Below, piece after piece: positions 31,263 to 33,603 of a stretch of DNA of 47,150 nucleotides (positions within the stretch are counted from its first letter, which is position 1; each line of letters starts with the position of its first letter). The stretch is taken from positions 1-47,150 of IMG/VR virus record IMGVR_UViG_3300045988_023644; one strand, 5' to 3'. Origin of the DNA: a virus. The position numbers and the translations under genes were made by a program. The notes beneath the pieces are model-generated. The model saw only the letters and a list, made by a program, of their open reading frames with translations. It was not told the origin of the DNA and searched no databases.

Positions 31263-31574
31263 CTACACGCCCCGGTACATCCCCTGCAAGGTCTTGACCT
31301 CCGCCGCCTTGTCGATCTGCTTCTGGTGCAGATAGTCATAGACGGCTTTCATGCCCTCGGGCGGCTCGCCCTTCTCCTGCCGGTACTTCTCGATCAGCTT
31401 CGCCACCTCGGTATGCAGCATGGTCATGTGCTGCATCTCGGCGGCGGAGAGGTCAAAGAACACCTTCGACAGGTTGGGGTTGGTGTCTTTGTACTCCAGC
31501 GCGCACTTGGCGTATTTGTGTGCGTCGCCGATCTCTTCATCGACCATTTCGGACAGCTTCTGGATCAACTTCAT
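31263..31574 (-). CDS. Helical (ferritin-like four-helix-bundle?) protein of unknown function
   Basis: Start at ATG 31574 (RBS GAGGTG). 103 aa. Confidence 0.55.
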   Translation of the reverse strand: MKLIQKLSEMVDEEIGDAHKYAKCALEYKDTNPNLSKVFFDLSAAEMQHMTMLHTEVAKLIEKYRQEKGEPPEGMKAVYDYLHQKQIDKAAEVKTLQGMYRGV

Positions 31575-31582
31575 GGCGCACC

Positions 31583-31984
31583 TCACAGTTTCTCGACCGT
31601 GACGGCAAGATTCTCCACCACGGCCTCGGTGCCGCCCAGAATCAGGGACAGGATGCTGCTTTCGCAGCCGCAGGCGTTGCGGATCAGCGCCGTGATGGCA
31701 AGATTCAGTGCATCATTGACAGCGGCAGCAGTCTCTGTCGCGGTCGCGCCGATGATCTCCACGCCGTCCTTCTGGACAGTCAGAGAGACGGCTCCTGCGG
31801 CGGTGGGCGCTACGGTGGCGCTGACGTTGACCAGATAGTAGCCCTGTCCGCACAGAGTGATGGTGTTACCGTCCTGCTTGATGTTGCAGCCGAACCGGCG
31901 CGTGGTCACGCCGACCGGCACAACGCCGCCCACGGCGATGGTGGGCTTGCTGGTGTTGGTGGTATAGATTGCAGATTTGCTCAT
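31583..31984 (-). CDS. Beta-rich protein resembling the BclA C-terminal (TNF/C1q-like) domain
   Basis: Start at ATG 31984 (RBS GAGGAGGAA). GYYLVNVSATVAP..AGAVSLTVQKDG pattern. Confidence 0.55.
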   Translation of the reverse strand: MSKSAIYTTNTSKPTIAVGGVVPVGVTTRRFGCNIKQDGNTITLCGQGYYLVNVSATVAPTAAGAVSLTVQKDGVEIIGATATETAAAVNDALNLAITALIRNACGCESSILSLILGGTEAVVENLAVTVEKL

Positions 31985-32079
31985 GATAATTTCCTCCTCA
32001 AAATAATACGGGGCAGCTATTGCCGCCCCGCTTGCCTCGCCTGAAAGGGCGTACTGGTTGTTGCAAATTTTGCAACAAC

Positions 32080-32685
32080 TCACACGTTGCCGCAGCCACA
32101 GCCGTTGCCGCAGAAGGGGGACATACCCGCGTTGTAGGTGTAGCCGTTGGGATAACGCACCACTCCATACATGCGGTTGTCCATCTCCAGACTGGCGATG
32201 CGGGCGGACTGCTCCGCGATCCGCTGCTCCAGCTGGGACTTCTCCAGCGCGGCGAATTTGGCCTCGATGTTGGCGTTCACGCCGTCGATGGCCCGCTGCG
32301 TGTTGCAGCAGCACTCCGCCAGCTGTGCCTGGATGCCGTTGCCGGTCTGCATGATGGTCATGTTGGTGCCGCTCTGTGCCAGCGCCATCTCCTTGCCCAG
32401 CTGGCCAATGTTGCCCTGCATCTCGTAGCCGAGGTTACAGATGCCGTTGCCAATATTGGTCAAGCGGTCGTTGATCTGGCCGAACTGCTGGCCGAAAAGG
32501 ATCTCCTGCTGGCTGGCTGCCGTGGCGTACTGGCCAAACTCTCCCTGCCGGTTCCAGCCGTTGTTGCCGAAGCCGAACATGAAGAGAAACAGTACGACGA
32601 TCAGAAACCAACCGGAACCCCAGCCGTCATTGTCCGTGCCGCGAGTGACGGCGGCGATATCGGACAGGCTCATATTCTCGCCCAT
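32080..32685 (-). CDS. Membrane protein: YjcZ-like G/W-rich TM segment, Q/N/G-rich coiled coil, C-terminal CGNGCGCGNV
   Basis: Start at ATG 32685 (RBS GGAAGGAG). Confidence 0.55.
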   Translation of the reverse strand: MGENMSLSDIAAVTRGTDNDGWGSGWFLIVVLFLFMFGFGNNGWNRQGEFGQYATAASQQEILFGQQFGQINDRLTNIGNGICNLGYEMQGNIGQLGKEMALAQSGTNMTIMQTGNGIQAQLAECCCNTQRAIDGVNANIEAKFAALEKSQLEQRIAEQSARIASLEMDNRMYGVVRYPNGYTYNAGMSPFCGNGCGCGNV

Positions 32686-32736
32686 GTGTGTTGCTCCTTC
32701 CATCAAAAATTATATGATAATCCGTGTCGACCCGGT

Positions 32737-32949
32737 TTATCTCAAGAATTGCGCAAACATCTTTGCTTGTTCTTGCAAGCTTGCAAACTGCTCTTTGCTC
32801 ATTTGCCCGGAGGAAAGCAAACGGTTGATCTCCGCCTCCGCTTTCTGCGGCGTCATGCCCGCCGCGAACTTGCGGAACTCCGCCACCATCGCCAGCGGAT
32901 TATTCGGCCTTGCTCTGCCGCTTAACATCTGCATCATCGGGTTTGCCAC
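32737..32949 (-). CDS. Hypothetical helical small protein
   Basis: GTG 32949 lies 7 nt after GGAGGAG. Overlaps the upstream gene by 50 nt. Confidence 0.45.
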   Translation of the reverse strand: MANPMMQMLSGRARPNNPLAMVAEFRKFAAGMTPQKAEAEINRLLSSGQMSKEQFASLQEQAKMFAQFLR

Positions 32950-33280
32950 TGAGCATCTCCTCCAATCTTTTCACACGGCTTTCCAGGCTGTTGACATCCA
33001 CCACCGGCGCGGGCTGGTAAGGGGCCACCGAGTACGGCGTCACCGTGGCATACCCCGCACCGTCCGTTGTCTTGAGCCAAACAATAGGGTCATGCTCGTC
33101 CATCAGCAGGATGGAGCTGTTGGGAGCCATTCTGAAGGCCTCTGCGCCGCCCTTGCCGTTCACGCGGGTAACTTGCCCCATGAACGCCTGCGGGCCTCCT
33201 GCGGCGCTCTGAGGGCCGCCAGAAGGGTATCCGTAAGGGCTGCCGTAATCCATCGGCTGATAGGGATTGAAATATGCCAT
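32900..33280 (-). CDS. Hypothetical protein (P/G/Y-rich N-terminus, small globular core, coiled-coil tail)
   Basis: RBS AAGGAGGTG. Preceded by a TACAAT box and a terminator. Confidence 0.6.
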   Translation of the reverse strand: MAYFNPYQPMDYGSPYGYPSGGPQSAAGGPQAFMGQVTRVNGKGGAEAFRMAPNSSILLMDEHDPIVWLKTTDGAGYATVTPYSVAPYQPAPVVDVNSLESRVKRLEEMLSGKPDDADVKRQSKAE

Positions 33281-33317
33281 GTCCGCACCTCCTTGTTAAC
33301 TAAATTGTAAAACAAAA

Positions 33318-33362
33318 AAGACCAAACAAATGGCCGATAAATGGTCATTGTTTGGTCTTTTG
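33318..33362. terminator. Bidirectional intrinsic terminator
   Basis: AAGACCAAACAA...TTGTTTGGTCTT, 12-bp stem flanked by A and T runs. Confidence 0.7.
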
Positions 33363-33363
33363 A

Positions 33364-33603
33364 CTATAAATTCTTTATATGGTCTGCAATTTTCCCGTAA
33401 GCGCGCCGCCGTCGCCGGTTGATGAACTCCGGCGTGACGAATTGCTGGGCGCACAACTGCGCGTAGCTTTTGCCTTTTACGTCACACTCGATCAGGAAAA
33501 ATTCTTCGTCGCTTGGCAATCCCATCCCGGCGATGAACTTCACCGCCCGCTGGGGCGCCATAGACTGTAGCTTTGCCCGGATATCACGATGTATCGGATT
33601 CAT
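33364..33603 (-). CDS. Small sigma-70 region-4-like HTH protein
   Basis: Start at ATG 33603. EEFFLIECDVKGKSYAQLCAQQFVTPEFINRRRRRAYGKI. Confidence 0.5.
   Translation of the reverse strand: MNPIHRDIRAKLQSMAPQRAVKFIAGMGLPSDEEFFLIECDVKGKSYAQLCAQQFVTPEFINRRRRRAYGKIADHIKNL

Follow-up and report, generated by a model that had tools for sequence, protein, structure and literature searches.

Among the closest described systems are the morons or lysogenic-conversion cassettes of phages, such as lambda bor/lom, HK97 gp15 and the cargo found between the lysin and attR in Firmicutes prophages. Similarly to these, the locus reported here is an autonomous unit with a terminator and a promoter of its own, dispensable and variable in site. 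The present locus is a six-gene cluster (g1 to g6, positions 31263-33603) of IMG/VR record IMGVR_UViG_3300045988_023644, a phage genome in circular-permuted form whose 47,150 nucleotides (nt) are the window analysed throughout, and whose late genes run from right to left on the minus strand. The cluster likewise lies between the lysin and attP. We find that g2, g3, g4 and g5, together with a usual upstream helix-turn-helix (HTH) gene and a variable sixth gene, constitute a self-contained accessory cassette of gut Clostridia phages. In contrast to typical morons, it is a conserved four- to six-gene operon with an internal putative attenuator and a linked regulator, it occurs in hundreds of sequence clusters, and it is present also in a phage without a recognisable integrase. 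No description of such a cassette was found in the literature searched.

All six open reading frames (ORFs) are confirmed on the minus strand, with some start codons corrected. These are g1 (33364-33603; 79 amino acids, aa), g2 (32900-33280; 126 aa), g3 (32737-32949; 70 aa), g4 (32080-32685; 201 aa), g5 (31583-31984; 133 aa) and g6 (31263-31574; 103 aa from its ATG, or 107 aa from a GTG at 31586). For g4 the mechanical ORF starts from a TTG at 32706 and gives 208 aa; database proteins 98% identical to it are 201 aa long, and therefore the start was set at the ATG, which has AGGAG in front.

The pattern of conservation delimits the cassette. In 150 fetched loci anchored on g4 and scanned with iterated hidden Markov models (HMMs), g2 was detected in 137, g5 in 117, g3 in 97, g6 in 59 and g1 in 50. 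The g3 count is limited by HMM sensitivity, a gap of the right size being left in many of the other loci, and the g1 count is HMM-limited as well. Throughout the 150 loci the order is always g2, g3, g4, g5, and it is kept down to approximately 30% identity and from about 39% to about 60% guanine-cytosine (GC) content; the clustering of g2-g5 is far above chance expectation. The original prediction of a six-gene cluster could have failed on this examination of co-occurrence and synteny and did not, since the genes are co-conserved. Nevertheless, the conserved unit is g2-g5, whereas g1 and g6 are frequent yet exchangeable. Sequences related to g4 are abundant, with 4,524 homologs at E <= 0.001 in a collection of 5.8 billion proteins. 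At the same threshold 605 matches are found among representatives of 50%-identity clusters, all of them 100-280 aa long and without fusions. At least 575 IMG/VR loci carry a relative, and a further 57 + 7 loci come from genome assemblies assigned to Oscillospiraceae, Lachnospiraceae, Ruminococcus, Acutalibacter, other Clostridia and some uncultured Bacilli; several of these assembly bins are probably mis-assigned phage contigs.

The cassette is set apart from the lysis genes by its own transcription signals. An intrinsic terminator, consisting of a hairpin and U6, lies between g1 and g2 on the minus strand (33314-33361) and folds on the plus strand too, terminator-like sites being predicted on both strands. 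The hairpin itself (33316-33361) has a folding energy of -19.6 kcal/mol and z = -5.8, and none of 200 shuffles (0/200) was equally stable. Straight after its T-run comes a promoter-like element (33286-33313, minus strand), in which G-T-T-T is followed by the hexamer TACAAT (33304-33309, minus strand) and, downstream, by the ribosome-binding site AAGGAGGTG (33286-33294, minus strand). The proposal that a terminator and a TACAAT box separate the lower five genes from the lysis genes is thus borne out. A GC-rich hairpin with a T-run precedes the first module gene in nearly all related loci. Furthermore, an expectation-maximization (EM) motif search recovered TTTT-R-T-G-C-n-A-A-A-A-T at a constant offset from the T-run in 41 of 47 non-redundant loci, the window reading TGTT-T-TACAAT in the same register. 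The '-16 region' of Voskuil and Chambliss is reportedly a Gram-positive TRTG extension followed by the -10 hexamer, and the module promoter looks like such a TRTG-type extended -10 promoter of the vegetative sigma-A type. The hairpin fills the -35 region, and therefore there is no -35 element. A sigma-E, sigma-K or sigma-G promoter was considered and rejected, as both inspection and the EM motif favour the sigma-A type. The ribosome-binding sites of the cassette are strong. A second GC-rich hairpin, with a T-rich tract, is placed between g4 and g5 (32008-32031, minus strand), directly before the ribosome-binding site of g5, and has an equivalent hairpin and T-run in 70 of 101 non-redundant loci. 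This suggests a putative attenuator or stabiliser; in the former case g2-g4 would be made in excess over g5-g6.

The genomic position of the module provides additional clues on its mobility. The slot between the lysis genes and att/integrase, in which the original prediction saw the classic site of lysogenic conversion, is indeed where the module is found in the window and in most of its close IMG/VR relatives, but the module is not tied to it. In two phages, MT835516 (L152, 18051-21189) and MT835739 (L153, 1522-4484), an insertion made up of the HTH gene plus the module separates 'minor capsid protein 2' from the scaffold protein; large serine recombinases are located elsewhere, as is an endolysin in MT835516. 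The terminator-like hairpin thus sits within the head operon of these two phages, which implies that late transcription there reads through terminators. In PQ006096, a complete circular genome of 58 kb that encodes a DNA polymerase and a helicase of its own, the module is the last part of the late operon, and an integrase is neither annotated nor recognisable in this genome. The module is missing from Flavonifractor phage Chenonceau, whose holin is similar. In three loci with approximately 90% g4 identity (L155-L157) the module is accompanied by a Dp1-type holin and an Amidase_2+CW_7 endolysin, and next to it comes a tyrosine integrase or, alternatively, a large serine recombinase (with a TnpW-like gene), which shows mosaic exchange on both cassette flanks.

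A further case is found in Lachnospira intestinalis CLA-AA-H89B (L107, NZ_JBBMFS010000001.1), where a sigG/sigF-like gene (6221-6860) by ylmC/ymxH is cut just before '…AIPMIIGEIKRYLRD'. The module terminator, promoter and first gene lie about 100 bp from the cut, with the module at the very edge of the element and a Rha antirepressor gene and an ImmA-like gene downstream. A module-bearing element thus appears to be inserted in a forespore sigma factor gene. An exact-pattern scan of this contig for the far end of the element gave one copy among the matches listed.

Taken together, the cassette is an autonomous, dispensable and mobile unit, and therefore a moron by definition, not bound to the conversion slot. 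It has a flanking terminator and its own promoter (by consensus), its downstream end abuts the attP hairpins, and its presence or absence and its site differ among otherwise related phages. On these structural features it can be classed as a multi-gene, self-regulated moron. The GC content of the module (55-61%) is the same as that of the rest of the phage and therefore indicates no recent foreign insertion, so that a recent foreign origin was rejected.

Of the core proteins, g4 comprises an acidic N-terminal tail, a Trp/Gly-flanked hydrophobic segment and a helix, about 114 residues long, that contains an invariant CCC motif. Its conserved C-terminal tail ends in a Cys cluster (GVVRYP..TY.AG.SPFC..GCGC). 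An AlphaFold2 (AF2) model built from 65 sequences places helices at residues 25-38 and 58-171 with low confidence (mean predicted local distance difference test score, pLDDT, of 57), and a Foldseek search of the PDB with this model returned nothing. In PHROGs g4 corresponds to phrog_16490 (E = 4e-15), and no Pfam family covers it. The membrane segment and the Cys-rich tail that had been predicted for g4 are both supported. The YjcZ likeness put forward at the same time was rejected, given that no YjcZ-type NCBIfam model matched at E <= 1 and the resemblance is confined to the Gly-flanked hydrophobic segment. Separately, three contigs of 100.1-100.9 kb binned as 'Mollicutes', 'Sphaerochaeta' and 'Bacilli' (L132, L134 and L136) each encode a g4 relative, which in two of the contigs is broken up into two ORFs, with neither g2 nor g5 detectable; these contigs probably represent one large phage lineage mis-binned into different metagenome-assembled genomes.

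For g5, the closest characterized proteins are BclA of B. anthracis (3TWI) and F-BclA, to whose C-terminal TNF/C1q-like domain the g5 family shows a weak similarity. The window protein matches Pfam BclA_C (PF18573) at E = 7.4e-7 and 29.5 bits, below the gathering cut-off of 38 bits, and BclA_C is matched by 9 of 26 family members at E < 0.01. The family profile retrieves 9H38, the C-terminal domain of B. thuringiensis F-BclA (PMC12357932), at E = 0.004 and 3TWI at E = 0.015, and in an hhalign comparison it is matched to the BclA C-terminal domain with 84% probability over 67 columns. This weak similarity agrees with the likeness to the BclA C-terminus noted in the original prediction. The jelly-roll alignment begins at residue 7. 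We regard g5 as a probable stand-alone TNF/C1q-type domain with conserved Cys residues. Similarly to coat and exosporium proteins, it has conserved cysteines and no signal peptide. In contrast to the BclA family, it is a bare, phage-encoded domain, collagen-like GXX repeats and an N-terminal exosporium-targeting segment being absent from the 133-aa sequence; an ExsF/BxpB-like or CsxA-like anchor was undetected among the genes examined. Thus g5 may work like a BclA-family protein, yet it falls outside that family.

The two proteins encoded ahead of g4 have no Pfam, NCBIfam, PHROGs or PADLOC match to a functional family, and the same applies to g4 itself. As the original prediction had it, g2 is rich in P, G and Y with a small core and a coiled coil, features visible in its sequence: a P/Q/G/Y-rich low-complexity N-terminus is followed by a conserved beta core of about 50 residues, the coiled coil and a K/D/E-rich tail. 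The protein belongs to phrog_21718 (E = 2e-7), and an alignment of the family matched no Pfam family. The g2 profile finds nothing in the PDB but (trimeric) coiled coils at E >= 0.07, and a single-sequence AF2 model (pLDDT 46) is unusable. A GerQ or coat-protein identity was also considered for g2 and rejected, with no Pfam match among 30 members. The small helical protein g3 (phrog_22984, E = 2.6e-14) shares 50 nt with the 3' end of g2, an overlap already apparent in the first reading. Weak SHOCT matches occur in 3 of 19 g3 members, the PDB yields a designed repeat and weak SHOCT similarity only, and one member weakly matches tape-measure models. All four core genes, g2-g5, fall in PHROGs families of 'unknown function'. 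A PADLOC-DB 2.0 scan of all six proteins gave coiled-coil or chance matches only (E >= 0.002, all below 16 bits), hence nothing credible, in agreement with the view that no defence, toxin or structural phage protein is recognisable among them.

The last gene of the cluster, g6, was predicted to encode a ferritin-like protein, and its sequence supports this. Similarly to EncFtn and the bacterioferritins and ferritins, it has about 100 aa arranged in two long helices and a Glu, a Tyr (+7) and an ExxH that align with BfrB, forming one E...Y...ExxH di-iron half-site per chain. No variation occurs at E14, Y21, E46 or H49 among 13 diverse members, and the profile matches BfrB at E = 2.2e-4 with the ligand columns aligned. 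The Pfam Rubrerythrin model (E = 0.0054, 17.5 bits, cut-off 22.8) and TIGR04535 for encapsulin-associated ferritin (E = 0.048, 13.6 bits, cut-off 125) score below their thresholds. We thus regard g6 as a half-ferritin from its ligand signature, one that passes no curated cut-off. It differs from ferritins in its single half-site and in having unrelated replacements in most of the distant relatives. There is no encapsulin shell gene beside g6, whose neighbours are g5 and attP, nor a recognisable cargo-targeting motif at its C-terminus (…LQGMYRGV).

The variable partners extend this picture. The sixth gene encodes either the half-ferritin, a DUF7841 protein or helical proteins with an R/G/S/Y-rich disordered middle (25 + 10 loci), examples from distant relatives being L107 9230-9865, L010 9313-9963, L011 9320-9880 and L129 3088-3558. 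The R/G/S/Y/D-rich middles contain repeated 'RDSMGRY'-like motifs, and the DUF7841 alternatives have similar R/Y/D/E-rich tails; these compositions resemble those of spore-coat or condensate-forming proteins. At the g5 position, nine loci (including L012 8599-9018 and L093 3273-3677) have instead a Cys-rich beta protein of 130-140 aa, with an N-terminal MAC..C..C motif and a C-terminal Thr/Pro/Ala-rich tail, which has no PDB or Pfam match and no detectable homology to g5. Furthermore, a family of 120-130 aa absent from the window is encoded beside the module in 29 of 69 diverse loci. Its invariant residues (N8, D19, C20, R23, H100 and D111) place Cys, His and Asp in the order seen in papain-like or transglutaminase-like enzymes, suggesting a putative enzyme, and no Pfam or PDB match was found for it. 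The gene stands directly ahead of g2 in L011 (6255-6647), L104, L124, L129, L131, L135, L137, L139, L140 and L142, and 3' of the module in L120 (9816-10196).

Upstream of the terminator, g1 starts 87 nt past the endolysin stop, and no terminator is predicted between the two. The window protein alone has no Pfam match and is under every curated NCBIfam threshold (best match TIGR02937, E = 0.085). The region-4-like HTH of the original prediction emerges instead at the family level: among 20 members, Sigma70_r4_2 is matched in 15, Sigma70_r4 in 11 and GerE in 3, and the profile retrieves from the PDB LuxR-type DNA-binding domains (1.9e-5), a sigma factor and GerE (1fse, 1.7e-4). The positional equivalent in PQ006096 reaches 26.7 bits with Sigma70_r4, against a Pfam cut-off of 24.1. 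By these matches the family clearly belongs to the stand-alone sigma-70 region 4 / LuxR-GerE-type HTH proteins. Similarly to GerE of B. subtilis (PDB 1FSE), g1 consists of little more than an HTH of the same fold class, being about 80 aa long, and it is located directly upstream of genes that it possibly controls; the phage late activators of the RinA/ArpU/DUF1492 kind are stand-alone HTH proteins as well. The PQ006096 HTH gene overlaps an upstream XhlA-like gene. Because of this overlap and the missing terminator after the endolysin, g1 is probably a late-transcript product. A broader HTH model detects an HTH of the g1 class no more than 600 bp ahead of g2 in at least 69 of the 123 loci that could be assessed. 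A Lachnospiraceae subgroup (L106, L107, L110, L115, L118 and L122) has kept the promoter and lacks the HTH.

Other features of the window frame the cluster. A holin gene (Phage_holin_5_2, 34376-34666) lies directly upstream of it, and the endolysin gene (Amidase_3+SPOR, 33691-34392) is the last lysis gene before g1. A gene for a GDSL/SGNH-type lipase or acylhydrolase (35122-35859, minus strand) separates the tail-fibre gene (35856-37823) from the lysis genes and could provide a candidate cell-envelope deacetylase or esterase for adsorption or lysis. On the other side, a tyrosine integrase gene (29904-31055) matching Phage_integrase reads toward an attP-like region (30994-31242), which bounds the module beyond g6. 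There, perfect 28-nt direct repeats (AAAAATTACAGATGAAATTACAGATGAA) at 30994-31021, within the 3' end of the integrase gene, and at 31215-31242 flank a tRNA-3'-end-like core (about 31060-31095), with a hairpin at 31099-31133 and an inverted repeat copy at 31199-31209. The repeats look like candidate arm-type integrase-binding sites of attP. ARAGORN found no complete tRNA in the window, and an Rfam scan of 30900-33500 gave hairpin noise only. Adjoining the integrase gene, positions 29455-30015 (plus strand) encode an HTH_3 (XRE-type) protein whose C-terminal part has two hydrophobic segments and which would be a repressor-like regulator tethered to the membrane; another HTH_3 gene is located at 28689-29039.

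We put forward that the products of the cassette form a protein layer resembling a coat or exosporium, by which the surface properties of the host membrane or spore envelope are altered to the benefit of the phage, a reading to which we give a probability of roughly 35%. It is ranked first because the cassette and its associated genes combine low-complexity Q/P/Y and R/G/Y proteins, Cys-rich proteins, a BclA-like domain, a ferritin-like protein and a putative Cys-His-Asp enzyme, with no signal peptides. A role at the spore surface is plausible; the link to spore and exosporium draws on the weak BclA_C similarity, the missing signal peptides, the Cys-rich and low-complexity composition and the host clade.

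In such a scheme, the host vegetative sigma factor (sigma-A) would read the cassette promoter, and expression would therefore be independent of the late programme, lysogens included, as moron logic implies. A single-pass membrane anchor would be supplied by g4, in which the long helix, measuring about 17 nm if fully extended, and the Cys-rich tail would make up a stalk. Direct inspection of g1-g6 found no signal peptide or lipobox, and g4 holds the sole membrane segment, so that its partners would meet it either on the cytoplasmic side or where the forespore outer membrane faces the mother cell. The bulk of the assembly might be formed by g2, with its coiled coil and sticky low-complexity region, and by g3, capped or decorated by trimeric, BclA-like g5. 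Cysteines (the CCC motif and tail of g4, the conserved Cys of g5) could cross-link the assembly once in oxidising conditions, g6 may contribute di-iron redox or iron chemistry, and g1, made from the lysis transcript, may modulate the cassette promoter via a palindrome centred near -40.

Several observations weigh against a coat-like layer. The BclA_C score of g5 is under the Pfam cut-off, and TNF-like folds are known in phage fibres too. The promoter is unlike sigma-E and sigma-K promoters, which argues against strictly sporulation-specific expression, and it is assigned from consensus. The models of g2 and g4 are of low confidence. The interruption of the sigG-like gene in Lachnospira intestinalis would abolish, not serve, sporulation. 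Finally, the constant co-orientation of the cassette with the late genes, the presumed co-transcription of g1 with the lysis genes and the presence of the module in PQ006096 fit a role in the lytic cycle equally well.

Such a very late lytic function is the main rival, possible in our view but on the unlikely side. Here g1, as the last gene of the lysis transcript, would activate the promoter that lacks a -35 element, and g2-g6 would accumulate just before lysis, either aiding release through a thick wall or S-layer or forming a cross-linked matrix that protects or aggregates virions. LuxR-type activators bind near -40, where the palindrome is centred, and the proximity of g1 to the endolysin, its overlap with the XhlA-like gene in PQ006096 and the frequent placement of such an HTH ahead of g2 all agree with this arrangement, as do the orientation of the module, its position inside the head operon of two phages and its presence in the phage lacking a recognisable integrase. 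However, a TRTG extended -10 should need no activator, and the Lachnospiraceae subgroup retains the promoter without the HTH. In addition, the strong terminator in the head operon implies late read-through anyway, and no known lysis-accessory family matches any of the products.

A more far-reaching proposal is that a self-regulated phage operon builds a cysteine-cross-linked layer of spore-coat or exosporium type within the host, either on the forespore, where the phage would remodel the surface of the very spore in which it is carried, or around the progeny as an occlusion-like matrix; we hold this to be doubtful. With a similar degree of reserve, we only tentatively entertain that the function of the cassette is of a kind undescribed for phages.

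The moron architecture with a constitutive-type promoter, and a membrane protein at its centre, would also suit superinfection exclusion or another envelope-level prophage defence, with g4 as membrane gatekeeper and the soluble partners as accessories or sensors. Known exclusion genes (HK97 gp15, Sie2009, Ltp) are moron-like, and the associated Cys-His-Asp family could be an effector. Yet these systems consist of one or two small proteins, the PADLOC hits amount to coiled-coil noise (ZorA, E = 0.008, 12.5 bits) and the Pfam and NCBIfam scans reveal no nuclease, NTPase or toxin domains. As such a defence would furthermore leave the BclA-like jelly roll, the low-complexity proteins and the ferritin-like protein unexplained, we consider it distinctly improbable.

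More improbable still are virion-associated proteins, such as head or tail decorations or fibres, encoded outside the usual morphogenesis order. The own terminator and promoter, the linked regulator, the membrane-type hydrophobic segment of g4, the absence of the module from related phages, its varying position and the PHROGs assignment of the four core genes all argue against them. In their favour are the placement of the module among the head genes of MT835516 and MT835739, the frequency of trimeric jelly rolls and coiled coils in phage fibres, and the weak tape-measure match of one g3 member.

Least likely of all is a spanin-like or XhlA-like lysis accessory in which g4 and the overlapping g2 and g3 finish envelope disruption after holin and endolysin: g4 recalls the i-spanins of Rz/Rz1 pairs and XhlA-type proteins as an N-terminally membrane-anchored coiled coil with cysteines, often beside holin and endolysin as in the window and many relatives, but no component has a lipobox or signal peptide or could act as the outer-membrane lipoprotein partner, the likely hosts (Oscillospiraceae and Lachnospiraceae) are monoderm, the module has its own promoter behind a terminator that separates it from the lysis genes, its position is not fixed (it lies away from them in MT835516 and MT835739), and the Pfam and PHROGs scans give no sequence similarity to spanins or XhlA-type proteins.

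Spore-forming Clostridia dominate the human gut, and to our knowledge their phages are almost uncharacterised. The cassette is carried by hundreds of distinct phage lineages, and three of its four core proteins fall outside any curated family. If it acts late in infection, it would represent a new class of post-assembly phage function. If it builds a layer on the forespore or around the progeny, this would be a structural remodelling of the host undescribed for any bacteriophage and widespread in gut Clostridia phages. If instead the coat-like layer proposed above alters the envelope or spore surface, the cassette would provide a common, so far unrecognised phage route to changed transmission, adhesion or resistance of gut anaerobes.

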